From positions 660,964 to 724,963 of the forward strand of contig CAJFCJ010000026.1 of the NCBI GenBank assembly GCA_904063045.1: 64,000 bases of DNA, given 5' to 3'. This stretch comes from Dimorphilus gyrociliatus (Eukaryota > Animalia > Annelida). Positions 9,475 through 55,663 of the stretch are shown here, piece after piece. Every line of letters starts with the position of its first letter. Position 1 is the first letter of the stretch. The translations under genes were made by a program, and so were the position numbers. The notes beneath the pieces were generated by a model. The model saw only the letters and a program-made list of their open reading frames with translations. It was not told where the DNA came from and did no database searches.

Positions 9475-9982
9475 ATTACCGTATTGTTGTTCACCGTCGA
9501 CTATGATGGGGAAGATACTAGTAGACTATCGGCTGTTTCTTTTGTATTTAAAGTCAAACGGACTTTTCAATAGCCAATAGTCGTTTACCTACCTGTCAGA
9601 AAGCCTTTTTTCTTCTCTTGACATCATTTACAGCTGGCCCTATCTTCAAGACACTATTATGTAATCTTTTATAATCCGTGTTTCTTTAACATTGACACCT
9701 GCCTCTTTTAAAATACTTGTAAGAGGTTTGCGCGTCTACTTGAAATCTTTTTCTTTTTATTTACTATAGGAATTTACAACCCCCGTCTTTGACACTCTTA
9801 ACAATGTTCGGCTGTTCTATAAAGTTCCTTTGATAATGAACTTTCACTTGTATGATCAAGATCAAGATGTATCTAATCGACTCGTCTTCCTATGCCTATA
9901 AAGAATATTATTTTATATAGGTCAAAATGAATATGCATAAGAATATAATGTATTCATAAATTAATTAGATCCAATTTTTTCA

Positions 9983-24646: not shown

Positions 24647-24949
24647 GACGATTTGTGCAGTATAACCTCTTTTCCTTAGTACTTTTTATAAATCTTCTAA
24701 TACAGTATAAAAGTTTTAAATCAATTTGACAAACAGACAGACAGTTAGTTATATTTAGCAAACAAAAAACTGTGCAAAAATTCTCTTCTCTTTACAGTAT
24801 TTCTCGCAATCTTCTTTGTCCAATTCCAACTCTTTTATAGGGCATATTATATTATCATCTCCATTAGAAACACTATCGGTATTAGATAGTACATAGTCTT
24901 CTTAAATGAATTTTTCTTAAAACTCTTATAATGCATATTCATTATTTCA

Positions 24950-27900
24950 CATTATTCACTTGGCTCTTTGCCAAGAATAGTCGTTGGACTCATCCACCAC
25001 ATTACCTTTCCTAGGAAAGAGGCACATTCGTTGAATAGGGAATTATATCTCTTGCATCTCTCTCGATATCGCTATGTCCGGTGTAGATCTCGAAGGTACG
25101 TTCTATAATCTTGCGATTGATGTATCCGAACTTGAGATTGTAGATAGATCTTTGGTCCAGGAATAGGACGAGGTCGTTGGGTTAAAGATTTAGCTTATAT
25201 TTGTCCTTGTACGATTCTGTTTTCTTGTGCATATTGTTAAATAGTTATGTGCAACATCTTGCATTTAAACGTTGGCGTTCTTTAGAAATAACAGCAGGAT
25301 CGTATTCACCGTAATTTTAGATACTATGAATTTAGACCACTATTATGTAATTATAACAAATCAATCATTTTTAGATAGGTAAACAATTGTATACCCCAAA
25401 TGGGCTCAATAATGTTAATATCTGGGCTATTTGCAGGCCAGTTTTCTAGTAATTTCATCTCTTTCCTTATGAATGTAGTAGTTGTTTTTGCTGTGTGGCA
25501 GCTCGCTCCATCTTGCTGGAAAATTTCACCCCGTTTGTATGTAGATAAGATATTTTCTGAGATTATATCTATATACCCATTGGCATTCATTCATTCATTG
25601 CAGAGTCCTCTGTCTCCATTATATTTTATAAATCCAAAGACCGTGATGTTACCACCATCAAACTTTACTGTTTTAGTGGTATATTTTGGATCATTTCTTT
25701 TACCAACTGGCCTCCTAACATATTCCCTTCGACGGGGATGCAGTTCAATGTTGCTTTCATCGCTGAATATTACTTTTCTCCATCTATTTGAGCTCCATTT
25801 AAGCTTTTGCTTACAGAATTGTATTCTTTTCTTAATTTACTTTGTATTTAGAGCTGGCTTCATTACAGAAATTCTGCCATTTAATTTATACTTGCATAAG
25901 ATTTTTTTCATACTAGATAGTGATATCCCAATAAGAACTGCAGAGTTTTCCAAAACTTCTCTAGCTGTCCATTTTGGATTCGATCCGCATGTCTTTGTGA
26001 GTTGCAGTTCCATCCTCCTGGTGATTTTACATTGGTCTACCAGACCTATGCAGATCATTAATTGTTTTAATATCGCGACTGTCGGTCCAGAGAAATCCAT
26101 TTCACAGTTCTTGAAGGGACAATAGAATAACGAGCATCGACTATAATCTTCCTTGTTAGATGAGATTCATTCAATCTTCCGATGGTAGTATAAGTTCCGT
26201 CATCCTCCTCATACAGTGAATAATTATTTATTTTCTAATAATTTATTTATTGGCATCGTAGCTTGTACGAGTTTAAATAGATATCGTTGGGCTATCTCGA
26301 GTTCTCTTGTATTCACTTCGTCATCATTATTTCTATCATACGGAGGGGATTAAGCTTTGAATTTGAATCTTAAAATGCATGCCATAGTTCGTCTCCCATT
26401 AACTCGAAGGTAAGGTCCACGGTTAGCATGTTGATTGTAATATTAGGTTTATCATGAACGATTTTTATTTCCTTGAAGTCTTCCCATTTCTCTCTCATCT
26501 TTCTTCTTACCTTTGTTAAGTAATCAGCAGGGTTATCTTCTGATCGAATGTCACACCAGCTGGCTTGTGATTCGGTTTTATTGATTTTACTGCATTACGT
26601 ATATATTTTGCTAGTTTTAAATCTCCATTCTCTAAGTAACTAAGCACTATTTGACTATCAAGAAATACTTTGATTGGGATCTCGGTAAAGATTGATTTAT
26701 AGATTTTCAATAAAGTTTACCATCAATTCTGCTCCAGGGATTCCAGGGAAGACGGAAGAAGATGCCAACAGATAGCCTCTCTGCCCAGTGACTGCATAGA
26801 CTGCTGCTCCGTACGCTATGTCTGAGGCATCTGCGTAAATGTGTATAAAGTTGGGTGATGGTATTTGTCTTGCAAGTGAGTAGGAACCAGAGATGTCCTT
26901 TAATACCTTGTTGATATTAGTCTAATTATTACTTCTTTTGTCCCAATGTAAACCATGAAAATCCGAAATGAGGACTTTCGCTTGTAATTTCACAGGTTCT
27001 ATACACACCATAATATCGTATATTTGTGTAACATACGAATAAAATTGACGTTTTGTGAATGAGGGTCCTATATCTCTATTCTGTATATTGATTTCGATCT
27101 CATCTGGATCCGGGTTATAGGTCAGTCCTAAGACCTTAATAGGGTTGTCGATGTTTTGGATATTTAAGGACAAGCGTGAATGAATGCAATTACTATTGGT
27201 AGCATAGTTTGCTAGGCATAGATTTTTGGCTGCTAATTCAGTGTTTAAACGATAAGCTAGGTTTTCCAGTTCCTGTCCAAAATCAGGTCATTATGTAGAA
27301 TGATTTCGATATTATTTTCTTTTCTTGGGAGGGATAAGGTGGATGTTTGTTAAATAGTGGTGCTTATAGCCGTACATGCAACGAACGGAGAACTTGTAGG
27401 TCCAAAAATATGACGTGTGATAACTGCTGATAATATTCTGTCTTGTTTTCGAGGGTCTTCATATAAAAAGTTAAAATAAGATTGATCAGTTTAGTCGACA
27501 TGTATGTTTAAAAACATATGTTTAATATCTGCTAAGATAAAGTATGGTTTGGTTCTCCATAACGTAAGAAGATGGGCTTAATTGGATTACGAGGGTCCTG
27601 GAAAAAGTATATCATTGAGAGAATAACCTTTATATTTAACGGCTGCATCAAAAATTATGCGGATAGAGTCCTTTTTTGGATTTATCACACCATGGTGAGG
27701 GAGATAGAATTTTACCTCTTCAGGAGATACCTGGCGTGCATATGAATTATCGAATAGAGATCGTATGGCCTTCCTGTTCTCGTCATTGTAAAAAGGTTTA
27801 CGTCGAATGTTTAAAAATCTACTTTTTGCCATAGGATATTTGGATCCCATTTGAATGGTAATTTCGTTGGATATATTTCGCCAAATTCTCTGTTGCGTGA

Positions 27901-29750
27901 TTGTCATCTATTGATTAGGAAGATTCTGAATCAATATCATCTATTTCAGATAGTTCTTTAATTGTATCGATATGGTGAACACTAGAGCTAGTCTCTTGAT
28001 AGAGCATATTACAATTTATTGGATTTGGATGGACTGTTGCTGTATATGGAGAGGTGGATCTATACCATCCGAGGGCATCTTTAATATAGGCATAGTTCTC
28101 AGTGGTGTATAATTCAAGAGGTACGTGATGTATGTTTACCATTCAAATCTGAGCTTAGTTCTATGAGTAGATTTATATTACCACTAGGTACAGACGGCTC
28201 CGTATAATTCGGATTAATATACATCTCTGGCTGCTCCAGTATAGAAGATAATGAATCTATGACACAGGCAACGACATCATAAATTCTGCCTAAGTGCGGA
28301 AATATGATTCGAACTTTCTCTGTAGTGATTGTTTGAAATTCATTGTTAACATAAGATATGTCAATCCAACAGACATTTCCTGTATCTGATGTGCACAATA
28401 TATCTTCTAAATATTGTCTGCTAATTAAGGAAACGGCTGCACCCATATCAATGAGAGCTGTGATTTTACAGAATTGCCAGATATTGGGATTTTTACCGTT
28501 GCGGCATATATGGGCATTCTCTTTGTCGCCTTCTTTGTATAGTTGTGGTTTACAGTAGCTTTAGATTTAGGAATCGTCTCTTCTTTGTGATACAGAGATG
28601 TGCGATGAGTTTGATCGCACTTTTTTGCTACTAAATTTTGATTGACAATTTTCACGTGTGTGCCCCACCGCGTAGACAGTTCGGACATCTATGCAGTAAA
28701 TGGATCAACCTTTGTCTTCCCTTCAGATCAGAATTTATGTAAATTGGGCAATAAGCCAAACATGTATGATTTTCGGTGCATAAACATCTGGAATTCTTGT
28801 GTTGGTGATATAGTTTGTGGTTTTCTTTTTTTACCATTGTCTTCTGAGTTCGAAATGGGATATGCATGCTTCTTAAATTGTTGTTTCGGTGTCTGTTGTC
28901 TTTAGGGATATCAGATTGTTTGAAATTACTAGAAGCTACTACGCTCGTTTCTGTAGTCCTCCATGGAAGAGAACCATCTTCGATAGCTTTGATGACTCCT
29001 ACAATATATTGTACTAGTTTCGTTACAATCAGATCAAAGTTACTTGTGTGTTTGAACATAACGTTATCAATATGACTCCGGATATTTATTGGAAGCCTTT
29101 CAATATATTGTTTTAGTTTGTCAAACTGTGAGCGTCCTTTGTAATTCGGGAGGTTCAAAAACATAAGAAGTTTCTTGAACCTCCTCCGCTATTTAACGTT
29201 TTAGTATCTGACATCTTTCAGAATCTTCTGTGTCTGCTTCTCGTAATGGAACGATAATATCCCTATAGAATTTCCGCCATTAAACTTCTCGGAAGAAAAC
29301 AACTTTTTTGTTCCTTAGAGTGCAGATTCTAGAATTAGAATAATTCGAAGAAGATCCTCTGTCATTTTGACCGCCATTCTCAAATAACATTACGTTGCTT
29401 TTTTGTTTCTCATGGATTTGAACTTTTTGGATTATCTTCGAAGTTAGGCCATATTGTAATTCGACCGTTGGGGAATGTTCCAATTCTTGCGTTCGAATAC
29501 GGATGGATGACTTGCATGATTCTTTAGTTGAACCTGACTGAATGGATCCTATCATTTGAATGATGCACTCCATTTGTGTCGTCATCTCCGTTCTCATAGC
29601 GTTGATTTTAAGCGTTCGATTCCTCGAATTTTTCCTCAAATCCCTTCCTTTGCTCCTCCAGTTTTTCATCTAGAGTTGATGAGTCGACCATATTTGTCCG
29701 TTGAGTTGTCTCCAATTGATTTGGAAGGTTGGTGCATTTAGGAACCATTT
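24950..29750 (-). mobile_element. Degenerate near-full-length BEL/Pao LTR retrotransposon
   Basis: Domains in order with stops and frameshifts: Gag coiled coil (29280-29700), Cys/His knuckles (28600-28800), protease LIDMGAAVSLI (~28450), RT YLPHHGVINPKK...IIFDAA...SLNDILFPGP (27587-27760), KVLGLTY (~27130), RNase H YADASDIAYGAAVY (~26800), DUF5641-like tail PNDLVLFLD (~25000-25190). LTR pair not found. Confidence 0.88.
25351..26150 (-). mobile_element. Tc1/mariner transposase remnant nested in the Pao element
   Basis: KPAL...WRKVIFSDES...FQQDGASCHTA...WPANSPDINIIEPIW (DDE motifs) with internal stops. No TIRs found. Confidence 0.88.
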
Positions 29751-30585
29751 GGATTGGAATTTGTCTCTTCCTCGACATTTCAATTTATTGTAGTCGACGA
29801 ATGATTCACGATCATAGGCCATCGTCTAATTTCACTAAGATAACGCTTGAAGGTTTATACTAGTAATCTTAAATAATAATTAAAGGTAGATGTGTTACTA
29901 TGATATCTATGATTTCATATTTATCTCTTGTCTTGTCATATTTCGTAGATGTTGATAAAAGCTAAAAAAAGAAAACAATTAAATAAAAATTTTGGTCAAA
30001 ATTATTAACAAAACTATCAACCCAAACAATTTTTTAATCATAATAATGGATTCATCTGAAGAGGAGACTGAAACTACATCTGAAGAATTGGATTCATAGG
30101 TAAGTAGTAGCATTCATCTCACTGCCATACTGTGTATCCATGCATTGTAATCCACAAAACTTGCAAAAATTAAAATCCATAAAAGATGTTTCGTATATGC
30201 TCTTTTTACAAATGTAGTCAACGGTCACAAGAAGATGCAGCTCCAATGAGCAAAGCAGATCCTCTGCAAAAGAGAAAGAGGAACAAAAATGACTATGTAG
30301 AAGATGAAGATGACACAATTGGAAAAAGGAGGGACCCTACCATCAGATTCAGGACTGGTGTGCACATGAGTACCTTGTAACGGATGTTTGTGTATCATCA
30401 TAGTCTGTGTACAAGTATAATTCCAATATCAAATTGTTTTCATCGAATATCTCGAATAAATCGAATAGTTCATCCTCATTTTTCTTTATCGATAATTCCA
30501 AATCATTCTCATCATTATAAGATTCTCCGATTTAGATAAGCATTCGATCATCTTTGAAAAATCAGATAATACATTATTTAACATA

Positions 30586-31490
30586 CAGTCCCAATAAAAA
30601 ATCTTGGGCAGGGTTGTTCTTAACGTGGAAAAAGTGAAATATTTAACTAAAACGACTTGATTAATTATTTTTTTTTTGTTTAGAATGAAGGAGGAGGTAA
30701 AATTTCTGGCAGGTATTTCAAATAATGCAAAAATTCCAACTTGAATCAATAATTTATCACATATCCTTTATTTTGGATGACAAGACGGCATCTCTTTTTT
30801 TATGCAGCTATATAAATGTTTTATATAGTGTTCAGAAATCAAAAAAAATTTCTCTTCTATGACAACCTTCAAATCCTCCTGATTTTTTGGAATTCTCTTG
30901 TAAACCCTATGTTTAATAGATATAGTTCTGCCCAGAGATTTTCTATTATGTTCAAGTCTGGACTTTGTGCTGGTCAGTCTTTTAGATATTTTATTTTATT
31001 TCGTCTTAAAAAAGATTTCGATACTTTTGATGTGTGGCATCGTACTCCATCCTATTGAAAGATATTCTCCTGTGTATATATAGGAAGTAGATGCTCTTTT
31101 AAAGTTGAGATATATGCCAGAGCTCTGAAATCATCATATTTGACGTTACAGAAACTTTTCCTGGTGTTTCTTGGCTTGCCCTTATCCTCCCGTTTACATC
31201 TGACTCTGACTCTTTGTTTAGGAAACAGGTCAAATGTTGTTTTGTTGGAAAAAGAATAGCTCTCAAGCTCATCCTCCTTTTTTTAAGGATTTTTTTTACC
31301 AAAAAGAATTCTCTTTTTTCTTGGCCAGACCTGGACCTGTCCTCCGTAGCAAAATGTTCCGCTTTCTCTTTCTGGTTGTTCTGAATAGTACTGCGAGCAA
31401 TTTTTAGCTCTTTAGAGATCTTTACTTGGCTTAACCCTCTTCTGTTCAATTTTCTCTCGCATTTCTTGGCTTATTTTACCCATTTTTAAA
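30586..31490 (-). mobile_element. Truncated Tc1/mariner element with one TIR (TA|CAGTCCCAA family)
   Basis: TIR at 30586 is closely similar to the TIRs at 57928 and 58631. Minus strand encodes an HTH (MNRRGLSQVKISKELKIARSTIQ) and PAQSPDLNIIENLW. Confidence 0.82.
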
Positions 31491-31499
31491 TTTTTGTAA

Positions 31500-32980
31500 T
31501 AATTTGTTCCGAAGAATGGTCTAAACAATTAAAAAAGTGGGTTTCTCTCTTAAAAATCTTGCTAATAGAACAAAATCTCTCCATCAATTTCCACCAAGAA
31601 TACGCAGGAGTATGCAATCATTAATTATCTTTAAAGCGTCATTTAATTCGATTATTTTCGGAGGACCAGTGTTAATTTTCAAACCAATCAGATTTGGAAT
31701 TAATTGACAACAATTCTGTAATTGAATAACCAAACTTTATAAATAAAAAGTCGTCTTTTTAGTCCATCATCTAATGGACCATTAGAAAAGCAATCATTCA
31801 AGCAATCATCGGAATGTTCTGCAACTTAGAGAATAGTGATATTCTTTGACACAATACATTCGTATGTACTTTTATCTATTAATTTTATAAAATAAAGAGC
31901 TTTAATCATTTTATTAATAGTATCGTATTCTCAATTTTCATCATGATCGCTATTATTTCGACTTACGCCTAATAAATCATTATTCAAACAATCTTCTTCT
32001 TTAAGATATTTTGCAGTAAAATATTCTTGGATAGCCATATGCACAAAATGTATTTTCCAAAGAAACGTAAACTAATCCTCCTAGACAGTACGACTCTTCA
32101 AAAATCTTTGTCATCTCAATTCTTTCTATTTTATCTATCGTTTTTCTCATACGCCATCTTTTCAAGTATCCTAACCCCCAATTCTATTTCATTGTTCTCC
32201 TAGTATAAATAACTTTAATTGATTTTTCAAAGATTGTATATAGACTTTGAAAATCATTCTGTTCTCTATATTTAGAGATATAGCCACTAACAAATTCGTT
32301 TATCAATATCCTTTTTAATTGACCAATGAAAAGTTGTAATGTTTTACCGATTCCCGCTTGTCCAGATATCAAAATATGTCTATTTCCCTTATCAATCACT
32401 TTTAGAAATTCGTTAGCTTGATCATACTCTTCTTCAAGTATATTAAAGTCTATATAGGATTTTCTAGCAATGCCAAGGGGGACATAATTATCTTCTACTC
32501 CATCTTTTTTATCGATGTCATCATCCTATCGCAACATAGTAGCCATATGGAATAGTTTATTGACACATTTCTCTTGGATTTGCCTTCTAGGAATTCTTGT
32601 GGAAAGCTTTCGATTCTCTGCAATAAATACATTGATTCCTTGCAGTTTATTTGCTGAAGTAGTGAAATTAGACGTTTTTTCGTTGGAAGTTTAAAGAGAA
32701 CTTTATCAAGATTTTCTGCTATCATTGAATTTCGGTCAGTATTACTTTTATGAATATCTACAGATACGACTCCATTTTGAGAACCAAAACAGCAAGAAAC
32801 TTGAGTATAATTCTTTGTTTCGACGGAATAATTGTATAAATTCGTCTCTATAGTATAAAACAGAGAATGAAGACATTATCTCTTTCCTTTTTCGTCCTTT
32901 TTTCTTATCTGTTAAAGAAGAATTCCAATAATATTACCATTTGTGTACATATTTTTGAATCGTTTACCTTTTGGACATGC
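31500..32980 (-). pseudogene. NACHT/NLR pseudogene with frameshifts and a large internal deletion
   Basis: ILISGQAGIGKT (~32340-32380), then FVHMAIQEYFTAKYL (~32015-32060) only ~300 nt later. Several stops; abuts the Tc1 element at ~31500. Confidence 0.78.
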
Positions 32981-36014: not shown

Positions 36015-36523
36015 CTAAAAGGGCTCGTAATTTTCCATAAGATTTTCCAGATCCACCTCGTTATCGCCGAATATCGCCTTCAAATCAAGAAAGGTAGAAT
36101 TTAGCAACAGCTCCGGCAGCGAGACTTTATTCGGTACCAGCTCTACAGACCTTGCGTCATACTTTGGACCGACATCATTAGATACTTTAGGTACAGCCGT
36201 AGGCAAGAGTCTACGCTTCTCTTCCCTATTAGTGTAGTCATTATCCTCAAAGTGGTCGCAACAAACTCGTTTCTTCCTAACAATCATCGGGTTGTTAACA
36301 AATTGTCGACTTAAATTAGCGTTTTGCAGTTGCGAAACCCATTTCTTGCACCTGAATGTAAAGAGGTTAAAAAGCACGTTTTATTGATAGATTAAGGGTC
36401 GTTAATGATTAAAACTTACATTTCAGGATCCCTTGGAAATCTGAAAAAATTCTTTGGGTTCTTCAAACCCGACACACTATCGCAGTTTAAAGCTTGACAC
36501 GAGAAACCAATACGCTTTGACAT
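36015..36523 (-). CDS. THAP-domain protein, exons 36523-36420 and 36352-36015
   Basis: CQALNC...FFRFPRDPEM|CKKWV...VCCDHFE...LLPTAVP is the C2CH THAP signature. Phase-2 intron AT|gtaagt ... ttcag|G. Confidence 0.85.
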
Positions 36524-37281
36524 ACTTTGGTTGATTTGGGACAAAAACACGCATGCGTAATCGACATTTTTCAAAAGATAAGCATCAAAAGGGCGGATAA
36601 AATTATTTACCAATGCTGATTGGTTAGAACGATAATATAGATATAAAACAAATATAAACAAACAAAACAATTTTTAATTTATACTATTACTGGATAAATA
36701 AGTCTATCAACAAATTGAAAAAATTGACTATACAATCTTGTTCATTTCTTTGCTTCTTCAAAACAATTTCAAAACTTTTCTATTTTTACATTAAACTTAA
36801 ATTTGAAGGAGGAAACAAGTGAAAATAAGCCGTTATATTTCCATTTTTTTTTTTACATTCTCCTCCTTCAAATCAAACAATGATCATGGCGGCTGTGCGA
36901 GTTATTCCCTTTCTCTTTTTCCTTTTTTTTTGCACAATACTTTTTCTAAATCGAAATAATGACGATAATCCCCCAATCCTTTTTACGTCAAACTATTTTT
37001 CTTACCGATAAAATTACATTAAAAATCCCCGACTATTGACTGAAAAAAAAAATATTATGCAATAAAAGAGCAAAGAGGAGAGAATGAAACAAGAAAGAAA
37101 GGATCCAAAAAGCTGTTAGCATTCATTACAGACAAATAAGCCAACAAGCGCCTTATACCCAATATATACAGTATATATACAGAAAGCTAAAACAAGAACC
37201 GCCAAATAAATGTTAACAAGAGAAAAAAAATAACAAAATAACAATAAAAATCACTTTAAACAAACAAACAATGACTACTTT

Positions 37282-40200
37282 TCAAGAATTTTCGGTTAGA
37301 TATCTATATCTTCTCCCAACAAACTTGAAAAGAGTTGTAAAAGTCGAAAGTTTTCCATCAAACAGGCGTTTTTTCAATGCACTATTCCACAACTGTTTCA
37401 CATCCGGAGCTAATTTATTATCAACAATATATTCCATATAAATTTTCAAATGAGATTCTGCTTTATTCATATTTTCCGTGTACAATTTTCGAACGTAATT
37501 CTGAGCGTCGTATAATTCGGCAAAGGTAGTCGGATCGCTATTTACTATTCGCCTCAAGGACGATAGTTTAGCTAAACATCTACTCTCAATAGTTGTGTTT
37601 GTTCCGTATTCCTTAATTAGTTTGTCCATTAATTCAACATACGAGTAAACGACGCTATTGTTCAATAAACCTAAACAATGCGCAACATTCCTACTAATTT
37701 GCGATGTAAGCAATTGATACTTAATATTTTCGGTCAGAGCGAAACGATTAACAATTTTATAATGACGACGTAGAAACTTTGGGAATTTATCAACTTCTCC
37801 GCTATATCTGTAATATCTATGAGATGTAAACCTTTTAAACTGCTCCTCGGACATCTGCTCCTTCTCCGAATCAGGTCTCAATATAGTTGGATTCTGTTTC
37901 GTCGCGTTGCGAAAGCGGCTCGTTTCGAAATAGTAATCGTCATCAGAGTCGTCGCTTTGCGAGCTTGCCATTAGACTGTTGGATTCGTCGGCGGAATGTT
38001 CATGACCTACGTTACCTGTATCATTCGAATTTGCGCGTGTGTATTCGATTTTTCTCCTCTTTTCTTGGGTACTTCCCAAATTATTTTCGTCGTCTTGCAT
38101 CTGCCTCTTCTTCACCGAAAACAATTTATCGAGTTGTTGATACAGCTTAGTAAAAAACTCATCATCTCGATCGCTTTTTTTCGCTAGTGTTTGCAAAACA
38201 GAACCTTGCTGATTTAAAGTTTCAAATAGAACTCTTTGACTAGTATTTATCTTAAGTAATGAAGAGCGATTTTCCTCCAAAGCTTGTTTTTGAATATCAA
38301 CCAACTTGGTTAAATTTTGTTGAAATTTATATAAAGATCCTCCGCCATTCGTCGAGTGGTCGATTGGAGTAAACTATGGATTTTGAATTATGTTAGTTTA
38401 TGTTGTAAAATTTTTTAGATATTAAATAGCCTAAGTCATCTTAATGAGTCTTTAGCCTTTTTTATACTCCAATCGTCCACTCACATTTCTCTGCTCGCTT
38501 TCAATAAACCTTTTTTCAATGGCATTAAGCCTCTGAATGATTGCGTTTGTGTCGTTTCCCCCGGTCGATTGTATGACATCATTTTGTACTCGTGCTTGTT
38601 CGTCGCCGTTGTTGTTGCTAGTGTCGTTGTTGCTGGTATTGCCATTGTCGTCGTCGTAGTCATCATTGTTGCCCATCAGATTCATAATCTCATTTTCATC
38701 CTCTTCTCTATTGCCTCTATCAGAATCAACAGTTGCGACGGAATTGCTTTGTATAATAGTTTTAGTAGTAATGTTGCTAATGTAACACTCTTGTTTGGTC
38801 ACTAGATAATTTGAAAAAGTGCAATGACTCGCTGCAAGAAAGTTTTCCAATTCTTCTAAAATATCGCTAGCATTTAAATTAGCAATAGCATCAGTTTCAG
38901 TAGCATTTTCAGTATCGGAACAAGGATCACAGTCCAAATCAACTTCGGCATCAAATTTAGTAACAACCGGCGAACCCACCTCTGAGGTAGTAAGATCCAC
39001 AATAGAGGTAGTACTGGGTGAAGACAAAGATTGAGTAACATTTGTAACAGTATTAACAGTATTATTAGTAGTCGTGAACGTGCTAGTTCCACATATATCA
39101 GCAACAGAAACAGTACTAACAGTGGGATTAGGACAAAAATCAGAAATAGAATCAATAATATCACTGATACTATTTGAATCATTGGTAGTATCAGCAGAAG
39201 AATCAACAACAGTATTAACGCCAGGACAAGAACTGTCACTGGTAGGAGGACAAAATTCAGGAATGGAACCTGTAATATTATTGATATCGAAATCAGCAGC
39301 TATGTCAATAGGTAAATCAGTGCCAGCATTAACGCTTGGATCGGTACTAGCATTGGGTTCAGAACGGAGTTCAGAAAGAGATTCTATAATGTTATATATA
39401 TCACTGATAGTAAGATCACTGTTAGTAGAAGCAGGAGAAGTAACATCAGCGTTAGAACCAAAACAAGGACTAGCACTGGGGCGAGAAGAAAACACAGGCT
39501 CAGACCCATCAGTAGCACTGATACTTGTAGAAACAATGCTGGTGCAAGTGTCAAGAGTAGCATTAACTCCAGATTCATAGGAACGAGGAATAACAGTAGG
39601 GCCAGAAGAAAACACAGGTATATAACCATCAGAAGTGCTGATGCTCATAGAAGCAACTCTTTTACAATTGCCAGGAGCAGCATTAACACCAGCGTTAACT
39701 CCAGATTCATTGGAACGAGGAATAACAATAGGGTCAGAAGAAAAAGCAGGTACACTACTATCAAAAGTACTGATGCTGGTAGAAGCAACGCTGGTGCAAT
39801 TTCCGAGAGCAGCATTAATACCAGATTCATTGAAATGAGGGATAAAACCAGGAGCTGTGCGAGGAGCAGCAACAGTACCATCATTAGTTCCAGCTCCACT
39901 GGAGCGAAAAGTGTAGTTAGGAATAGTACCAAGAGCAGCATTAAGACCAGCGCTTATTTCAGATCCACTAGAGTGAGAAGTGTAATTAGGAAAAGTACCA
40001 AGAGCAGCGTTAATATTGGCACTCATGGTGGAGGAAGAACCAACATTGGAACGGAGACCAAAAGCTGAAACAGAGCTAGCAGCACCTCTATAACTAGTAG
40101 CCATACTCGAACCAGCACCAGAAACAGTAGTATTACCAAAATTAACACGAGAAGCAAAACAAACGTTTGGACGAAAACCAAAGCCAGGAACAGAGCTATG

Positions 40201-41334
40201 AGCGATTCTATTACCAGCCGTAGCATTCGTACCAAGAGCAGCATTGATACCAGTATTTACGGTAGAGGCGGAATCAATATTGGGGTAGAGAGAAAAATTA
40301 GGAGTAGAGCTAGTAAACGCTCTACTAGAAATAATAACATTTGTACCAAGAGCAGCATTAACACTACCAATATTAACGGCAGAAGTAGAACGAACATTGG
40401 GCGGGAGGTAATATCCATAAACAGAACTAGTTGTTATTCTATTGCCAGATGGAGTATTCGAAAGTGAATCAAGTGCAGCATTAATATCAACATTTTCGGC
40501 AATGGGAGAACCAAGATTGGGACGAAAGTAATAATTAGGAATAGAATGATTAGAACCAGTATGTCTTATACTATTAGTAGTAACGCCATAAGTATAACCA
40601 ACAGTAGAATGAGCGTAATAGCCAGGAATAGAAGCACCAACAGTATCAACGCCAGAACCAGGACAAAATATCGAATTATTGCTCACAGTAATATTATTAT
40701 TCGTATTGTTGATATCATTATTAGTACTTAAAGCACTATTAATATCAGCATGAGCTCCTAAATCGGGATGAGAATAATAGCTGTAGGTAGCGTTAACAGC
40801 GTCAGTACTTGTAGAAGTAGCATTATGATCAGTTTCAGAATCAATTCCAACTGGTGCATAAACCCCATTACCTACGGTAATATTCATACTAGTATTAGAA
40901 TCAGAAATAGAAGATACAGTTTCAACAGCGTTGGAGACGTTCGAATTAGAATCATCGCTAGTTTGAAAACAAAATGTAGGAACAGGGCCATAAACATTAC
41001 TAATAGTAGTAGAAACGCTATTGACCATGTCGCTATAATTATGAATGCCGTTGTCTGTACTAGTACCAACGATAGTATCAATATCATAACCAAACGGAAA
41101 ATTTTCAGCCATACTACTATCCATATCAATATTCATATCTTTGTTATTCATTTCAGGTGCTTCAGTTGATGTAAAGAAAAGACGAATATTAATATAAAAA
41201 AAAGTGTCATATTTAAAGGCGGAAATATGAAAGCACTCCATATTCTTTCTCTTATAAACTTTTGGATTCTTTGGCATATTTCCGTCGTCATATTTAGTGG
41301 TTGAATGATTGTTCTTACCTTGTTGATTATTCAT
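37282..41334 (-). CDS. Spliced gag-derived gene: long S/T/N/G-rich repeat region + coiled coil + BEL/Pao Gag capsid-like domain (~1,240 aa). Exons 41334-41319, 41159-38485, 38304-37282
   Basis: Phase-0 intron 38484-38305 (AAT|GTGAGT ... ccaag|TTG) joins the 966-aa and 340-aa ORFs into one continuous coiled coil (RLNAIEKRFIESEQRN|LVDIQKQALEENR). C-terminal YSGEVDKFPKF...KYQLL...LIKEYG...LAPDVKQLW is DUF1759-like. No pol or LTR nearby. Confidence 0.75.
39480..40800 (-). repeat. Degenerate ~39-43-aa coding tandem repeat (about 9-11 units) with an INAAL core
   Basis: The DNA core gagcagcattaa and variants recur near 39555, 39680, 39808, 39931, 40000, 40232, 40348, 40472, 40732. Confidence 0.8.
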
Positions 41335-42212
41335 TTTTCGTCTTTCTTTCAATTCTATGGAAATTTTTTACATATAGTTGAAATAACATTAAATTAATAT
41401 ATCATCAAATACGTACCACTATCTTTTCTTCTTTTTAAATTGTCTTTATGTTGACAACACTCCGAATTTTGTTAAAGTGAACATGTAATGCAGCGTTGAG
41501 CTCTGTCAACGATTTAAAAGCGGGAAATTCAAATCTATATTTGCGTTTTTTGTTCCTATGTTTAAATCAAAGGTATTTGCTGTTTTAATAGATACTTTCA
41601 ATCATATTAGAGTCAACTTGAGGGATTTTTCGATGATTTACTTGATAATAAAGCAAATATTCTTACTTTTCCTAGTTTACTATTCTGGTGCCATCTACCG
41701 TTCTTCACACTAACTTATCACCTTGACCTCATGACATTCTCTCAATATCGCCTATTATCGCCGATATATGTAACAATATATTTAAAAATAACGTGAAAAT
41801 ACTATTAACTTGATAAGTTATTTAAACAATTACAAGAAGCAACTTCTTGTCTAATTTTCCTAACTCAAACATTCATACTTTTAAATTTTTCGCAAACAAC
41901 TGTATTTTCGCTCAAGGACAAAAATGGAACAAAGATGCTTAAAAGTTTAGAACAAACGAATGTCATGCTAAAATCCATTTATTATTTGTTTCCAGGCTTT
42001 TTAAATTGGCGTCTATTAGACGATGTAGTCTATATTTATTATAGCAATAGGCCTATTCTTGAAATCCAGATATTTTCCTTTTACTAGTTCAACTTAGCCG
42101 TAACTTCTACTCACTCCTGTATCTATAAAAGTTGAAATCACTCAATAAAAATACTTGTCAGACACTTTTTAGTGGAACATCGACTGAAAAAGACGCGTGA
42201 ACATCGAAAAAA

Positions 42213-42725
42213 ATGTCATCATTCAATACTAAACATAGATATGGCAACAGCCCTAAAGTTCTAACGAATGTTGACTTCCAAATTGAAATTATAGAAGTGT
42301 CCAGTGAAGATGAGATGGGCAATGTCGTATGTAAAGAAGAGGAATTGGAAGAAGAGGGATTAGAAGAAGATTGCATTGTAATATCAAGCGATGAAGAGGT
42401 GGAGGATATATCGAGAGAAAATGAAGCAAATACTTCATTAATGGAAGCAGAATCGTTTAATGGAATAGATTCAAATCAGATTTTTGTATATAATGAGAGT
42501 GATGGAACCGTAGAATATAGTGGAATTGGAGAAACTCTTGAATATGCCGAATCATCAGATGAAGAACTAAATCCTCCGTTGAACCGTATGTCTAGATTTA
42601 GTTTTTTTTATTCGTCAAACGACGATTCAGATGATGAAATGGACACAGGTGTAGACGAAGTGAAACTAAATGATCTTAACAAAGGAGTAGACTTGTCGGA
42701 CGAAGATAACACTAATCAACCTTAA
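42213..42725 (+). CDS. Highly acidic 170-aa protein with two SIM-like motifs
   Basis: Single ATG-initiated ORF with strong D/E bias; IEIIEVSSEDE and CIVISSDEE. Confidence 0.65.
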   Translation: MSSFNTKHRYGNSPKVLTNVDFQIEIIEVSSEDEMGNVVCKEEELEEEGLEEDCIVISSDEEVEDISRENEANTSLMEAESFNGIDSNQIFVYNESDGTVEYSGIGETLEYAESSDEELNPPLNRMSRFSFFYSSNDDSDDEMDTGVDEVKLNDLNKGVDLSDEDNTNQP

Positions 42726-43005
42726 AGAAAACGATAAAATCGGTAAATATAGTAACCTTTATAATAAAATAATGGTTTGTTTAAATAGTGCGAAAAGTTT
42801 TGAATACAAAAGTTTCATATAGATATTATCTACTTTATTAAAGTTGTTCAACTATTTCTCTTCTAAAGATAAGCTATTCTGTATAAGTAAAAGAAAATCA
42901 AGAAGAAATAATTTGTACAACAGAAAGGTTATTTTTCAATAAAACTTTTGTATTTCTTAAATCAGTGTTAAGGGAACAGAAAAGAATAACAAAAGATATT
43001 TTTCT

Positions 43006-46450: not shown

Positions 46451-46522
46451 CTCCCAGACCGGGAATCGAACCCGGGCCGCCCGGGTGAAAGCCGGGAATC
46501 CTAACCCCTAGACCATCTGGGA
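46451..46522 (-). tRNA. trnE: tRNA-Glu (anticodon TTC)
   Basis: TCCCAGATGGTCTAGGGGTTAGGATTCCCGGCTTTCACCCGGGCGGCCCGGGTTCGATTCCCGGTCTGGGAG: 7-bp acceptor stem, TTC anticodon loop, A and B boxes. Confidence 0.97.
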
Positions 46523-46909: not shown

Positions 46910-49900
46910 TCATTCATTCGTATCCTCTGTAGCTTGGGATTCGTCAGCGTTATGAGTTGCAGTTCCACTTTGAACGTTGTCATTATGAGAAGATATTGAA
47001 GTACTTACCTGTATCCTATTCGTATTCGTAGATACAGCCAGATTTGAACTAGTGCTCTGCGTATTCTGAAATGGTTTTTTCATGTTGTCTTTTCCTGTAG
47101 AAGAATGCTCGATGTTTTTTGTCGCATTTTTCAAGTCCCTGCCAGCAGTCGAAAGAGTCGTAGTCGTTCTTTCAGCGCAATTTGATGTGACACTTGAAAT
47201 ACACGTTTTGGTTGTTGGGTTTGAAAATTTCCATCGACTACTTAGAATAGACTCCACAGGTGGTATTGGTCGTCTATAATCTGCTGTCGCTTCCATATTA
47301 GAATATAATTTATATTGATCCTTGTTCAGGATAGTTTCCACAGGTGGAATTCCAATGTTTTGTTTTGTACGACTTTCAGTCACGCTTGAATTACAATTTC
47401 TACCGCCACCGCTATCCTGGATGGAAGAATTTTTATATACAGTATACTATATAGTTTATTGAAGTGAAATGTCTACTTACATTTCGACTTTGTTTAGTAT
47501 TTTGCGGATAAGTTGCTACAGTTGAATCGGGCGATAAACTTTGCCAATTATTCCCATCTGAATAACATTCTGGAGCCGCCAAAGAAAGAGCACTTTGTTC
47601 AACAGACCTGGTGTTAGCACTCGTAATATCATTTTGACCAGTATATTGGATGTGGGTAGTATATTGGGGATAAGTTATCTGATATGGAACATCTGCCGAA
47701 CCATGATCTCTATACGGAGATGATACTGAAGATGATGTAGAGACGTTAGAGCTTGCGCTTGCCGAAAGAGTATAATATATCGGATACGTCGCCTCGAATT
47801 GGGCATCTTGTGAGCTTTTTTGTTGACTAGTTGTAATCGGTAACGCTTCTGAAAGCAAAGCAGGAGTGATTAATTGAACAGAATTAAAACTACTACAAAA
47901 GGTACAACTCTCATGAGCACAATGAGGATACATTGCCGTAGGAGGATCATCTGCAGGACAATTTTGTTGATTGGAGGAATTCGACGATGATACTGCAAGC
48001 GAAGCAGGAGTGTTTAGTTGAGCAAATTCGAAACTGCTGCTCTCCTTAGTATACTCGGGATATGCTACTCTGAGTGGAGCATCTGAAGAATTGTTTTGCT
48101 GAATATTTGTATTCGACAAAGAAACTGCAGGTGAATTGGCAGTACATTGCTTTGTAGGGTTTGAGCTAGTAGTAGACGTTTGACTCTCTGTAGCGTATTG
48201 AGGATAAGATATATAAGAAGAATTTTGTAGACAGGTGTTATATTCGACTGCAGGTAAAGTAGAAACTATTGGCTTCTGAACAGAGCTGTAGCTAGCAGTT
48301 GACGTAAGATTTTGGCTTGTTGCATTTTGTAAATAGTTTTTCGCCGAATAAGGCCCTGGCCAATTATTCTCACTAACAGGATATTCAGCTGGCCGAAAGG
48401 CAGTATACGAAGGTTGCCATGTGTTATTATGAAAAGTATACTCGTCTGCCAAGGAAGAGGAGTCATCTTCAACAGTTTTTTTTTCACGAGTATTTTTATC
48501 TTGATAATACTCCGAATCAGATGGAAGCTCTAGATAATATTGATAGTTCATCTTCAAAGGAACACCTGAAAAATCTTCATTCCTATATTTCTTTGAAAGT
48601 GACTCAAACAGCGAAGTAGTAGAATCCCTATCACTCGAGTCGTTATCACTATTCGATGCAGTATCCTCAAGTTGCTTAGTATCAGTCTGAGGGAGAGACT
48701 TGGACTGTGAAAGTGTTTTTTCTTTATCAAGAAACAACGATTCCACTGGCGGAACGGTGATATCTCGGCCACAAGAGCTTGAGCTAGCACTTGTATCTGG
48801 AATCTGTGTATTCGGCAAATATTTTGTTTTATGAGCAGGATCTAAAGAATTCTTTCGTACTTTTCTACGTACCTTCGAGTTATTCACTATTTCGTCAATA
48901 GTATTTGATTCAACTGATTCGAAAGTGCTTTTTCGAGTCTGTTTACTTGCGTTTGATTTCATTAATGAAGTATTAGAACTCGCAACGGTAGCAGAGTCGA
49001 CTCTCGAAGAAAGGTTGTTCTTAGATAGTAAAGTAGCGGAATTTAAATAACTTTTTCCATCCTTTTTACATATAAAAAGTTTTAACGGAGGAACAACAGT
49101 AGTTTTTGGATCAACAACATTTGGTTTAGCATTCGAAGCAGTATTCCCCTCAGGCTCTTCTGATTGATAACGAGAACTTTTTCGACCTTTTCTTCTTGAA
49201 ACAGGCTTCACAGGTGGATTGGCTGTATTTTTAGCAACAGTAACGCGTTCGATGTTTGAAGTTGAAGTATTTGATTTTAATTGACCAGGATTTGAATAGG
49301 TCTTTCCATTCCTTTTACAAATAACCATCTTCAATGATTGAGCAGTAGTGCTTTGGGGATTGCTGTTGGAATTGTTTTTTGGGATAGGTTCCTTCTCACT
49401 TCGTTGTAAGCCTGGAGCATTTTCCTGAACATAATCACTAGCAATCGATTTAACTGATGGTGTACGTGTAACTGGTTTAATGGAGCAAATACTCGAGATT
49501 GAACTCTTTTTAGGTTTTGTACAAGTGGGATTTGAAGAGCTTTTTTTTGTAACAACGTTTTCTATAATTGGGCTGGAGTTAATATTCGAGGAGAAATTCT
49601 CATTAGTTTGCGGAAAGCTGGAATTCGGTTGACTCTGTTGAATAGTTTCACTTATTGACGAGTCTAGCGGTGAACTATCAGGCTTTTGACTGGTGGAACT
49701 TGAGATACAGCCCTTTATATGTTGAGTTAAATTTAAATTCGAATAACATTTTTGGCTATCCTTGCATAACGTTGATTCCAGAGGTGGAACAGAAATCTTT
49801 GCCTTGACAGACTCAGATCTATCGGCTGCACCAGTATCATAAGTAGATTGTGAATTATCGGTAGTTGAAACTCTTTCCCAACTAGTTCCTTTTAAAATCC

Positions 49901-52900
49901 ATTTTAAAGGTGGAATGGAAGCAGGTTGTTCAACCGAGCGTGAACAAGTACTTGATGTAGGTTTCGGGGCTTGTTGAGGATAGTCCGGCTGCATAGTAGA
50001 ATCTAAAGTACTTTCAATGAAAGTCGACCCAACAGATGAAATAGTAGAGGTATACGAAACTGCGTTGGAACTTGTCACTGCAACTTTGTTCTGGTCGTTC
50101 ATTAAATATTTTACAGGATATTGTTGGACGTAGCCGGTATCAATGTTTGAGGTTAAACTGGGAGTATTATATTGTGAATAAAGTTTAGTTGGATGACACG
50201 GAGGAATTTGTTGACTGCTAGTTTGAGTTGAACCAGTTTGGTAAATCCAGTTAGAATTAATGTTCGATGAAAGATTTGATTTACCATAATAAGGATAATC
50301 TACTTGACTGGTACTCGCAGTATTTCGTATATTTTTGTTTAACGTTGTCTGTACTGGTGCTGTTGGATTATAATTTTGAGTAAACGGCGGCGGTGATGTA
50401 TTTGTCGTAGCGTTGGAAGCTCTTCGATCAACAATATCTAATAGTGACTCGGTGGATGTCAAAATAGGATAGGAAGCACAAGTTGAAGCAATTTTGGCCT
50501 GTTTTTTGGAATATCTTTTGGGCGTTGCCTTTGTTGCGGTGCCACGAGTTCTTTTAGAACCATTTTGATTTCGTGGGTTAATTTTTGTACTGCTTTTCCG
50601 TCCGATTTTTTCACTTCGTGGAATTGGTGTACGCTGTTGCGAGTACTTTAGGGATGATTTTCTATTACCTTTCGGACTATTTTTCAAGATCGATTCCAGA
50701 ATTGAAACTTGAGAATTCCCAGAGTTATTTTTCATAGACGATTTTCCCCGAGTAGTTGACTTGGTATCCTTTGAATTTCTTTCCATCGTTAGAAAATGCA
50801 AATTATCACTTTGAAAACTGCTATCAGTGGTACTAGTAGTAGTGATAGTAGTAATAGTTGCAGTAGCAATCGCTGTCGCTACTACATTTTGTTGAACATT
50901 TGCCTGAGTACTATGTGATGTTACTTCGATGCCAGATGTGTTACACTGATAATTATTATGTCCTGCGGAATAAGTCACTTGTGTATCAGTTGTAGCTGAA
51001 TTTTCGGTCGTTATTGGACAGTTACTCATTAAACGATTCAACATACTAACAGGAATGTTTTTCAAGATACTACTAGGGAAATAGCTTGGATCAAAGTTCA
51101 AATTGCAATAAAAGCTCTGTTCGCCGTTATTGTCGGTTGAAGCATCTGAGTCACCGCTTGGTGACATATTCGAACGAGAGTCGTCTTGAGATTTACTGAA
51201 GAAACTAAAAGATTTATTGTCTTCAAAGTTGTTTAGGCCAACTTGATTCCGATTGTCAATATTTGAAGCGTATCCAGAAGCATGTTCCAATCCAGTATTG
51301 ATTATGTTACCATTTTGGACATCGTATGAAGCAAACTGCGTGTTGCTTATAGGAGCAGCAACTGAATTTCGAAGAGAACTCAGAGGATTTTGACAATCAT
51401 TTGTGGCGTTGAACGAACTTACACAAAGGGAGCAATCTGGAATTCTGTCGGGATTATATGCAATGTTTACAACACTATTTTGAGATAGTCCGTACGCGTT
51501 GTTTGTAAATGGACCGTATGAAACATTTCCATTTTCGTCCGATATGCTTAAATGACGCGACTCAAGAGTTGTATTATTCTGATTTGATTGATAATAGTTT
51601 CCAGATAAGCCCAAAGAGTGATAATTGTTCAATGCATTTTGATTCAAGTCGTAGCCTTGTATTTGACTATGAGGCGGAACAAAATTTGCCATAAAAGTTT
51701 GATTACAACTTCCACCTTGGTTATTATCAGGAACGACCATAAAGCTTTTTGGCTCGTTATTAATTTGTAGACTAGATGAAGTTCGTTGTGGAGTAGATGG
51801 AGTTCGGTTAAGAGCCATATGATCCTTACTAAGCGTGTCTGGAAAGTCAGGTAGATTGCCACTTTGAAATCTTCGAGAAATAAAACTCACGTCCATTATT
51901 CGAGGATTATGCAGTTGATTATCATTATTCAATTCAGATATATTTTGAGTGGAATGATTAAATATATTAGCCACTTTCTCGGGTTGATTTAGGACAGAAT
52001 TCGAGTTCAAAAGTTCATTTAACTTATTACTATTGGCGTTCCTAGATAATTCGGTTGAAGTGGATTGAGATGTAGAACTTCTATTTTCTAGAGTTGTCTG
52101 CTTCGAGTTTTCGGAAACGACTGCGGATTCTCCCGTTCGACGATTCAACGACAGATCTAGTGGACGCTCTTGATTGTTAATAGCTTCTTCATAAGAATTC
52201 GAAACGCTATTGGTATAATTGTACGAATGAGTTAATGCACTACTTTCCAAGGCGTTACTGCTGGGATTAGAACTATATACTTGAGTGTGATTCGAAGGCG
52301 ATTGACTTTGAACTTGATCGCTGGGATTGACACGACTGTTTTCTTGCGAAAGTTTTATAACCTTTACAATTTCGTTGTCATCATCTGACGACAAATCTTC
52401 ATAAGGACAGAAATTACAGCTTGGAGAATTTTTAGGAGTATCTTCTGTAATATCAATAAGTACAGGTCTAGGAATAGTATTTTCTCTTTCGCTTAAAGGT
52501 TTACTGGTACTCGGCTGTTGAGTATCGGAAGCACTTCTGACAGATACATTGATTGATGGTTCCGTTGACGTACCACTAGAGTTATTATTTACTCCCTCAG
52601 CCAAATTATAAAAGTTATTAAAGCCGCTATTTATTGAATTGGATGGACCATTCCTTTTCATATTTATCGTTTTATCAATAAGGTTCGGTCTAGATGGGAG
52701 CTTATAGCGATTGTTTGAAACAGACGGAGCTGGAATGTATAATATAGAACCCAAAGGTTTTGCTATATTCCTTCGAATAACTCTAGCCCTCCGAAAGCCT
52801 ACATTATTCTGTAATATATAAAACGTTTACTCGATTACCAATTACTTAAAGTAATATTAACCTTAAATCGGAAGACAATATTAACATTTTTTCCCTCATC

Positions 52901-55663
52901 AATTAATTTCGAAATTTGCTTCCAGGGAAGAGAATATACGTTTTCCTATGTTAACGAAGAGAATATTATAAACTTTATGGGTAAGTAGAATTTACTGATA
53001 ACTTTACTAACCACGTTAAATTGCATATCTCCGGTAGGATCTGATTTACTAAGATATAAAGAAAAAATTTAGCAACTAATTAAAATATATACTAAAGTCA
53101 CAATAATAAGTAATTAGTAAAAGGAAAAAAGGTTTTATAAGGTGATTATTTGATGTTATATAATTTTGATTTGCCTTATCATCATATTAAATCTGTACGT
53201 GAAGTCTCGGTTGAAAAACTGTAAAAGTTAGTTAATTTGCTTCCTTTTTAGAGTTGGATTTTAGAAGGGCCTATTTTTCAACTCTTCCATTTCAACTTGT
53301 ATTTGCATAAAACCTTTTTGACATTAGACAATGATATCTGAATAGGCACAGTACAGTTTTGTAAAATTTTTTGTGCTGTCCAGTTTGGTTTAAATCTTCA
53401 TTTTTTTGTAATCTAAAATTCTATTTCCCTTGTTATTGTTTGTTATCTGGGAGATAATAACTCTTAATTGTAAGGTCATAGCAACTGTCTTCAAATTACT
53501 TAATAGCTTGTGAAATAATCTAGACCATAAACATATTTTGGTCGTCAAAAAATTCACATGTATAAACTTTTTATCCCTTGTTATAATTACTTATTATCGT
53601 GACTGTATATAGTGTATAAGCTACAAAAATACCTGTTATATTCATGATGAAGTAACGGATATGTATATTCTCTCTGGTTGGCGAATTCCTTACTTTCATC
53701 GCTTTCCTTGTGCGACTCTTTATCGTTGTTATTTAAATCAGAAAATGTATTATTAGGTTCCGTATTCGGCTCATTGGGTAATTCCGTTCTTAAAATAATT
53801 TTATTATAATTAAAATAAAGTTAAAAAAAAAAATTTCAATTTACATTTGTAATTCGGAATCAGATTTTGCTGATGTCAATTCCTCCGTTATTACTTCAAC
53901 ATATTGTGCAGTATAGGCTAAAGTCCTATAGTTGAGTAGAAAAATTAAATAGTATGGAAAAATAAAACATATTATAGCTAATAAGAAAATACCTTTGTAT
54001 CTTAACAGGACGTTCATTAATCGTTGTATACTGTCTAGAAAAATAAATACGATATTTAATGATCATTCTAAACAAACATTTAATACGTACTGATTATATA
54101 CTGCAAAACTATCTTTAACACTTCTAGTCTGGTTCATTAAACCTTCACTTGATTTAGGATCAGCCGAAGGCGATTCGATCAACGGAGATTCGTTCGATGT
54201 TGATAAGCTGACTTTATTTACCATAGCCCCAGTCTCCTCCTTCGACTCATCTAAATTTGGTAAAGGTTCATCAACTGTATTCACTTCCGGCTGAATTGTT
54301 GGAATTCCATTTACAATCATACTAGACGGAAGAATTAAAGGTTCTTTTATAAATATGCTCGGTTCTATTGTAGCACCGCAATTCATTCGAGTCATAGCTG
54401 AACTATTAGCTTGACGAGTGAAAGGTTCATTTACTACAGGTACATTTAGGAGATACGGCATATTTTGATTTTTATGTACTGTAGCTAGTATTACGTTGGA
54501 TTTAACTACTGGAGATTTGTTAATATGAGCCACAATAACATTATTCGGCTGGATTGTTGAAGATTCGCTCACAGTAGCTAAATTTAAGGTTGGTTGTTGA
54601 ATCATTGGAGGTTCATTTACTGTTGTTGATAATGAGGTAGGTTCAATCAATGACGATTCATTGACGATAGTCGCAATTATATTTGGTTGCTGCAAGGAGG
54701 ACTCATTGACAGAAGTAGTTACATCTACCAATGACTGAACAACTTCAGACTCGTCAATACTGTCCATATATGCCGCCGGTTGTTGGACAGCTTCCTGCTT
54801 ATTCAATACAGTTACACCTATTATAGGCTGACGTTCACTTGACGTGACAGAACTTAGTCGATCTTTCGGAGGTTGGCTCTCCAAACTTGAATCGTGTTTG
54901 AGTAGATTATTAGCGTCCCTGGTTAATATATGTTGCTCTGTTGCCGTTTCCTTTGCTTCACAGTCATCATCCCTGGACTTAGTGATCCTATAGCGGACGG
55001 TTGGAGAATTAGCCTTCCGTTTTTTATTACTGTAGATACAAATTAACTTTATGTTACAGTGTTGAGTAGATGTTCAACTACCTACTTTACCACGAGTGAA
55101 AGAGGTTCAGGATCTGGGTCTGGGTCTGGTGCCGGATATCTGTTTATGGGAATAATAAGCGTTATTAAATAGGAAAATATGTTAATTGTAAACACCCACT
55201 CGTCAATTCTAAAGTGAGGCTCATAAGGCATAACCTCGTCGTTTCTGAAACAAACCAAATTTATGTTAAACACAAAAATAGACAGTATTAGAAGACTACT
55301 TGCCTATACATAGATAAAACAGGGTCGCACGATATATCATCTTGATGGTAGTCTATCGGAGGTAAGCGACTGGAAATAAAGTAATAATTACAACATTTTA
55401 AAACAAAATTCCTTATATATATATATTTACCTTGAAAGTAATAACCATAAATTTACATCTTCAGGTTTAAGACTTAAGTTATTAAGCGTTTCAACTCGCT
55501 TCGTGTCAAATGGCGGAAAATTGACCAAATCGACAATGTCCAACCCTTCAACTGCCAAAAAGTCTGGATGTATTGGAAATATATGGGGACAGGCTAACGA
55601 ATACTCAGAATCATTATCTACTAAAAATTCATAAGTATCGTTAGAGGTAAAACTATACGCCAT
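46910..55663 (-). CDS. Giant intrinsically disordered S/T/N/Q/P-rich protein (~2,500 aa, ~12 exons)
   Basis: ATG 55663. A chain of small phase-matched GT-AG exons (55663-55431, 55369-55310, ..., 53788-53633, ~53050-53014, ~52948-52865) leads into the 5.3-kb exon (~52811-47481) and final exon 47416-46910. Contains PLDLS and basic NLS-like clusters. Confidence 0.75.
53230..53605 (-). mobile_element. Tc1 5' fragment (TA|CAGTCAC family) in an intron
   Basis: Terminus TA|CAGTCACG at 53605. PNWTAQKIL...ISLSNVKKVLCKYKL matches the Tc1 remnant at ~25900. About 120 bp is shared with 58830-58950. Confidence 0.72.

Follow-up and report, generated by a model that had tools for sequence, protein, structure and literature searches.

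In a survey of 14 deep co-options of retrotransposon gag genes, a single case, the fungal gene Crtg14, is of Bel-Pao origin, and all seven animal cases derive from Ty3/gypsy elements (PMC8321522). Crtg14 of tremellomycete fungi is fused to PEX14, carries an intron in its gag part, is present in single copy, and is conserved across orders (PMC8321522). Here we describe a candidate domesticated BEL/Pao gag in an animal: DgyrCDS13660 of the miniature marine annelid Dimorphilus gyrociliatus, encoded on the minus strand of a 64,000-nucleotide (nt) stretch of genomic DNA (the window, to which all positions refer). Like Crtg14, it has a Bel-Pao gag origin, an intron inside the gag-derived part, and a fusion to extra sequence; unlike the fungal PEX14 fusion with its conservation across orders, it is an animal gene with a repeat arm that has no known relative. 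The spliced fusion of two open reading frames (ORFs), the BEL/Pao origin of the capsid, the loss of zinc knuckles and pol, and the lack of a long terminal repeat (LTR) pair are supported. Domestication of the gene is probable and, given domestication, assembly of its protein is moderately likely. The full reading carries about an even chance of being correct: a spliced, transcribed worm gene, its C-terminal third derived from a BEL/Pao gag, likely domesticated, with a capsid predicted to oligomerize (in capsomer- or shell-like form) and the arm on the outside. If true, a spliced annelid BEL/Pao capsid gene would mean that a further LTR superfamily has given rise to domesticated capsids in animals, and in a phylum for which the literature search returned no paper.

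A preliminary description of this DNA, made from the letters alone, knew of no well-characterized BEL/Pao-derived equivalent with such an N-terminal extension; a BEL/Pao gag co-option has, however, been published for fungi, namely Crtg14 (PMC8321522). The literature search, with subscription papers outside its scope, returned no animal BEL/Pao gag domestication and no paper on capsid domestication in annelids; only the fungal case came up. The Drosophila gene Iris is BEL/Pao-derived, from env and not gag. A screen of the human genome reports, in the sections drawn on here, no Belpaoviridae capsids (PMC10516033).

The two minus-strand frames in the ORF list of the window (41367-38452, 971 amino acids (aa), and 38373-37282, 363 aa) are spliced into a single frame by one 5,040-nt contig of sequencing run X1, which follows the genome in the blocks 41444-41417, 41354-41319, 41159-38485, 38373-36418, and 36349-36007 with no other letters and no gaps. 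X1 is the sole run found to contain the stretch and belongs to one study; its record does not list it as RNA, and it is read as RNA because its contigs skip GT-AG introns. The gene comprises four exons and three GT-AG introns, all on the minus strand, and the spliced product is 1,260 aa long. Exon 1 (41417..41444) is non-coding, its outer edge being the 5' end of the contig, and is followed by intron 1 (41355..41416, 62 nt) within the 5' untranslated region (UTR). Exon 2 (41319..41354) holds the start codon, an ATG at 41334, and intron 2 (41160..41318, 159 nt) is in frame and stop-free. The Ser/Thr/Asn-rich arm (aa 6 to ~780) is encoded in exon 3 (38485..41159), which continues through an acidic stretch into the first of the Gag-like helices. 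Intron 3 (38374..38484, 111 nt, phase 0) interrupts the Gag-like helical region, carries stops in frame, and connects the two ORFs. Beyond the stop codon, the contig defines a transcribed 3' stretch (36524..37281) with no AATAAA and one ATTAAA, at 36678. The C-terminal ORF matches DgyrCDS13660 at 100%; the NCBI protein has 1,313 aa and is alone in its own 90% cluster, and the NCBI model shares the 38484-38374 junction, its sole difference being that intron 2 is kept.

The mismatch-free contig across the junction bears out the fusion by splicing that the preliminary description had proposed, and both 5' introns are skipped exactly as suggested there. For the joining intron, donor 38484 and phase 0 were placed correctly, as the contig and a check of the sequence confirm, but the proposed length of 180 nt (38484-38305) is wrong for the main form, for which both the X1 contig and the NCBI model use acceptor 38374. 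Acceptor 38305 may serve a rare variant; contigs lose rare forms. The frame is intact and, in this one run, transcribed and spliced in the manner of a host gene, as expected of a domesticated gag. The D. gyrociliatus genome is compact and poor in transposable elements (TEs; 4.87%), with a median intron of 66 nt (PMC7854359).

The BEL/Pao-type capsid domain (37282..37851, minus strand) consists of two helical lobes (aa ~1072-1156 and ~1157-1260) and ends at the stop codon without a nucleocapsid. Its earlier assignment as Pao Gag-like is upheld by Pfam, in which the C-terminal ~185 aa match DUF1759 (E 1.4e-6; 28.8 bits against a cut-off of 25.4; profile positions 1-145 of 148). The best match of the capsid in the Atlas cluster search is likewise a DUF1759 cluster (score 0.92; 136 of 256 features shared), and lower rows carrying Retrotrans_gag share fewer features. 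The Pfam profiles Retrotrans_gag, Ty3_capsid, PNMA, and Arc gave no match at E up to 1, and the capsid sequence is thus not recognized as Ty3/gypsy-type. A capsid model was built from a three-sequence alignment (pLDDT, the predicted local distance difference test, 65.5; predicted template modeling score (pTM) 0.45) and searched against 48,161 chains. Gag capsids fill the top 19 of the 50 listed rows (Z 6.2-7.7) and 30 of the top 32. The best match is PNMA2 (Z 7.7; root-mean-square deviation (rmsd) 15.1; 151 residues aligned); single lobes align at Z 6-7.2 with rmsd 2.7-4. A second capsid model again places Gag capsids in its top 6 rows. It is this uniform ranking, repeated by a second model, and not any single score, that carries the weight of the fold evidence, and it supports a two-lobed fold of the ~185 aa, with each score below the tool's threshold of Z 8. 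Foldseek against a viral library returned nothing at E 0.001, its best row being a retroviral Gag (E 0.023), and sequence searches of the PDB returned nothing meaningful (2 rows at E ~0.6 in one, 0 rows in another).

Arc/dArc, PNMA2, PEG10, and MOAP1, which appear among the top fold-search rows, share this two-lobed capsid fold, and vertebrate Arc, like the worm gene, has a coil before the capsid and no knuckle. These genes are of Ty3/gypsy origin, whereas the worm gene has a DUF1759 (BEL/Pao) capsid, a ~780-aa arm, and introns in its coding region, and its capsids are predicted only.

Upstream of the capsid, a predicted helical/coiled-coil region (38032..38553, minus strand; aa 875-1011) occupies the position of a matrix domain, according to an AlphaFold2 (AF2) model (pLDDT ~35-75) and a heptad scan. 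The modeled helices span aa 875-896, 910-936, and 941-1011 and are followed by a linker, with a break at the splice junction (mean pLDDT 59). The 23 extra residues supplied by the 38374 acceptor include a Pro and a Gly-Gly-Gly run. The unbroken coiled coil once proposed across the junction is therefore not borne out, as the AF2 helix ends at aa 896 and resumes at aa 910; a helix hinged at the junction is predicted instead. In layout only, this arrangement resembles the Gag of the Atlas belpaovirus, with matrix at 2-137 and capsid at 188-372, compared with a 137-aa helical region, a ~60-aa linker, and a ~185-aa basic capsid in the worm protein (bioRxiv 10.64898/2026.03.22.711591). Unlike the worm gene, Atlas has its gag, pol, and env intact between LTRs and carries three knuckles, and its matrix is predicted as a four-helix bundle rather than long helices (bioRxiv 10.64898/2026.03.22.711591).

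The locus lacks the parts of an intact BEL/Pao element: three knuckles, pol (protease, reverse transcriptase, RNase H, integrase), and paired LTRs. As the preliminary description held, the protein ends without a zinc knuckle, and no such motif occurs in three frames of 37281-36524. No pol lies downstream, where a THAP-domain gene starts 758 nt past the stop with no ORF of 100 aa between. Comparison of upstream with downstream sequence gave no LTR pair (score 31; mean 28.4 and maximum 36 over 100 shuffles) and no flanking repeat. The preliminary description also noted no polypurine tract (PPT); one PPT-like run followed by TGT does occur at 36869, 410 nt past the stop, but the window has five of these on that strand, and this one lacks a partner LTR. 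No primer-binding site was noted at the gene on inspection by eye.

These features bear on an alternative without domestication: a BEL/Pao derivative, reduced to gag and either non-autonomous or stranded not long ago, that is driven by a neighbor's promoter, its arm having expanded while it was active and its introns being cryptic. We consider this unlikely. The PPT-like run with its TGT would suit such an element, and a knuckle-less gag frame elsewhere in the window (8248-9525) resembles a deleted one. Against it stand the precise splicing of three introns whose lengths suit the host (62, 159, and 111 nt, compared with the genome median of 66 nt), one of which has in-frame stops within the Gag part, the lack of an LTR pair, and the tight packing of the gene between two host genes.

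The arm (residues 1 to ~780) is 34-41% Ser, Thr, and Asn and almost devoid of basic residues. It contains a degenerate repeat tract (39439..40748, minus strand) of 132-nt units that are 67-83% alike, and eight [IVL]NA[AT][LP] motifs at aa 231-537 spaced 23-78 aa apart; in repeat family D2, all 12 spacings are multiples of 3. No Pfam family matched the arm, and no second match was found elsewhere in the window; a database homology search with the arm itself was not made. The arm had been called disordered: its composition and the lack of a Pfam match agree with this, but a charge-hydropathy index, positive over aa 161-600, does not favor disorder there. A reading as a secreted mucin was ruled out, with no signal or membrane segment present (top 19-residue hydropathy 1.1). 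Composition shifts near 38900-38650, within exon 3, and therefore the joining intron sits within the Gag-like part and not at the seam. At four-fold degenerate sites of the arm, T occupies 73% of 410 positions, compared with 23-45% in eight other coding stretches that include the rest of the gene; this signature of repeat expansion also fits the stranded element, as do the neutral-like ratios of nonsynonymous to synonymous change (dN/dS) among arm repeats. For three repeat pairs (114 codons), the proportion of synonymous sites that differ (pS) is 0.21-0.32 and dN/dS is 0.71, 1.06, and 0.86, with a pooled pS of 0.26 and a pooled nonsynonymous proportion (pN) of 0.24. The gene thereby offers a view of how repeats multiplying in frame build up a new exon on a gag that was captured, here in a genome that is compact and TE-poor. 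Separately, the window holds a 1,797-codon Ser/Thr/Asn-rich frame at 47433-52826 (minus strand) that has no Pfam match and, by tblastn, no relation to the arm.

Although the arm repeats differ at 21-32% of synonymous sites, the frame stays open. Under neutral simulation (our own simple model, 300 runs per rate), the whole coding frame remained open in 14 of 300 runs at 0.02 substitutions per site and in none of 300 at rates of at least 0.05. This shows selection for an open frame.

A phmmer search of 1.84 billion representative proteins returned two hits at E 0.001, one being the gene and the other P0002, a Logan protein of 600 aa whose capsid shares 28% identity with it across 166 residues (E 4e-14). 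Like the worm protein, P0002 has an N-terminus of low complexity, a coil-like stretch, and no knuckles, and its capsid is DUF1759-like (E 8e-5, under the cut-off); it differs in that its N-terminus is charged, shorter, and not alignable with the arm. Because the collection gave no Logan version of the focal gene, which is a weak indication, P0002 may come from another species; it may also be an unannotated paralogue. Residues 1-13 of P0002 read like a translated intron pyrimidine tract, which hints at an upstream exon. The one addition from a profile search (7,992 scored candidates) was P0003, a Pao gag of the ordinary, knuckle-bearing kind. Capsid identity to the worm protein is 18% (31/172) for this intact Pao gag and 14% (24/167) for the Pao gag neighboring the gene in the window. 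No paralogue appeared in three protein searches covering 187-2,000 aa; in the profile search among them the neighboring gag frame, though part of the query profile, likewise went unretrieved, so that unannotated copies can be missed. X1 shows no variant letters across the gene, and two metagenome scans gave 592 and 324 pattern matches, none confirmed. The lack of a close copy among the 1.84 billion representatives and of variants in X1 further disfavors a stranded element. A bolder version of the domestication reading would make this the first case in animals of a capsid gene domesticated from a BEL/Pao gag. The gene would then be an old and conserved one of dinophilids, with P0002 as a distant member, forming RNA-binding shells with a ~90-kDa low-complexity brush, and it would belong to a small family of Pao gags without knuckles that this lineage recruited. 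This version is tentative and, on balance, doubtful.

Several observations weigh against domestication and a shell-forming capsid. Transcription is documented by one run of one study. All fold scores fall short of the threshold and, with the pLDDT and pTM of the model, are modest; Foldseek against the PDB returned nothing at E 0.001 (best E 0.094). P0002 matches the gene in the capsid only, and no orthologue of known origin was found among the 1.84 billion representatives. The arm repeats show no amino-acid constraint, and when a repeat block of 127 codons was simulated by itself at 0.1, 136 of 300 runs kept it open; selection for an open frame would, moreover, also act on an active element. 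The frame at 8248-9525 implies that internal deletion can produce gags without knuckles here.

Under the favored reading of a domesticated, assembling Gag, the ancestor would have been a Pao gag with helical matrix region, linker, and capsid from which everything past the capsid was lost; introns would have been gained or exposed, the gag placed under a host promoter, and the ~780-aa arm grown by in-frame tandem duplication. The product would act as a scaffold in the cytoplasm, much as Arc or PNMA2 does, with the helical region or coil and the capsid multimerizing the protein into a brush of low-charge, aromatic-dotted repeats. The arm would stay attached because no protease is encoded, and it would be a brush on the outside, not cargo within, because the N-terminus of the BEL/Pao capsid lies on the particle exterior in Atlas; the earlier idea of a cargo arm inside the shell is accordingly unlikely (bioRxiv 10.64898/2026.03.22.711591). 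The capsid domain is basic (isoelectric point (pI) 9.8) and, by analogy, may bind RNA without knuckles; the Atlas capsid has a pI of 9.2, and its authors suggest nucleic acid binding without knuckles (bioRxiv 10.64898/2026.03.22.711591). BEL/Pao capsid structures have only recently been solved, which makes assembly, arm position, and RNA binding directly testable.

The load on the capsid bears on whether it assembles at all. About 114 kDa lies N-terminal to a 22-kDa capsid with no protease to cut it off, and the sequence has diverged far from all other Pao gags found; the domesticated capsid could instead be a monomeric or dimeric peptide-binding module ending a low-complexity protein, comparable to the Arc N-lobe, which binds peptides, or to the precedent of the Crtg14-Pex14 fusion. 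This appears distinctly unlikely, given that both lobes are kept at full BEL/Pao length and that Atlas capsids tolerate an N-terminal nanobody fusion (bioRxiv 10.64898/2026.03.22.711591). A different use of a domesticated capsid would be restriction, in which it binds Gag from active LTR elements, or co-assembles with it, and particle formation is poisoned by the bulky arm, in the style of Fv1 or Ty1 p22/Drt2. Those Gag-derived restriction factors are gag-only without pol and of retroviral or Ty1/copia origin; Drt2 is present in the fold search as a structure title only. A dominant-negative Gag would be expected to have just this layout, a helical region and a capsid with neither nucleocapsid nor pol; there are BEL/Pao relics at distances of 7 kb and 28 kb, and fast arm evolution fits conflict. 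Restriction is nonetheless improbable: at 14% and 18% identity to the neighboring and the intact Pao gag, the capsid is too distant for easy co-assembly, and the genome is TE-poor (4.87%) with Ty3/gypsy as its main LTR family (PMC7854359). In mammals, genes derived from retrotransposons commonly contain disordered regions that evolve fast (PMC11299033).

The downstream THAP-domain gene (36015..36523, minus strand; 146 aa, with a 68-nt intron at 36417-36350) shares the 5,040-nt contig with the gag gene, and no AATAAA separates the two, reflecting either read-through or overlapping UTRs; operons are not reported for D. gyrociliatus in the sections of the genome paper drawn on here, which do describe CTCF motifs at promoters (PMC7854359). 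If the two form one mRNA, the THAP intron ~860 nt past the gag stop could trigger nonsense-mediated decay. In Arc, an intron after the stop is linked to nonsense-mediated decay. About 250 nt upstream, between the gag gene and its divergent neighbor, lies a putative CTCF-like site (41686..41700, minus strand; AGATGGCAC core), the only match in the window to the CTCF pattern scanned for and one mismatch from the AGATGGCG motif (PMC7854359, supplement 4). Six promoter 12-mers were absent from the entries listed in a table of the assay for transposase-accessible chromatin (ATAC). The divergent spliced gene (42157-42815, plus strand, start near 42157) encodes a small acidic protein with no Pfam match; it has several hydrophobic-then-acidic motifs, which we take to resemble SUMO-interacting motifs.

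Other retroelement remains are present in the window. The second open Pao gag frame (9525-8248, minus strand), 28 kb from the gene, has 425 codons from stop to stop and encodes a coil, DUF1759, and an in-frame DUF5641 (integrase tail) without a knuckle; a PPT-like run with TGT lies near 8300, and no partner LTR was found. Positions 8661-9311 are uncovered in X1, which does not imply silence. The frame is either an internally deleted element or a second recruit. A decayed BEL/Pao element at ~24700-30000 (minus strand) retains a knuckle remnant (28652-29188) and a weak Peptidase_A17 match (26925-27287), with a Tc1/mariner-like insert, read by eye, at ~25400-26150. Interleaved with the Pao relics are NACHT- and leucine-rich-repeat-rich NOD-like receptor (NLR)-like genes, one apparently broken, at 4648-7775 (plus), 9983-13240 (minus), 18992-24646 (plus), and 32184-32875 (minus). 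Inverted-repeat elements at 57923-58636, 53083-53618, and 30583-31141, with 73-nt arms 92% complementary at 57923/58636 and dispersed copies, are likely miniature inverted-repeat transposable elements or mariner derivatives. A 6,856-nt X1 contig covers 1500-4365 without mismatch, where no ORF of 100 aa occurs, consistent with a long UTR or non-coding RNA. The window is AT-rich and carries a tRNA-Glu(TTC) gene at 46451-46522 (minus strand).

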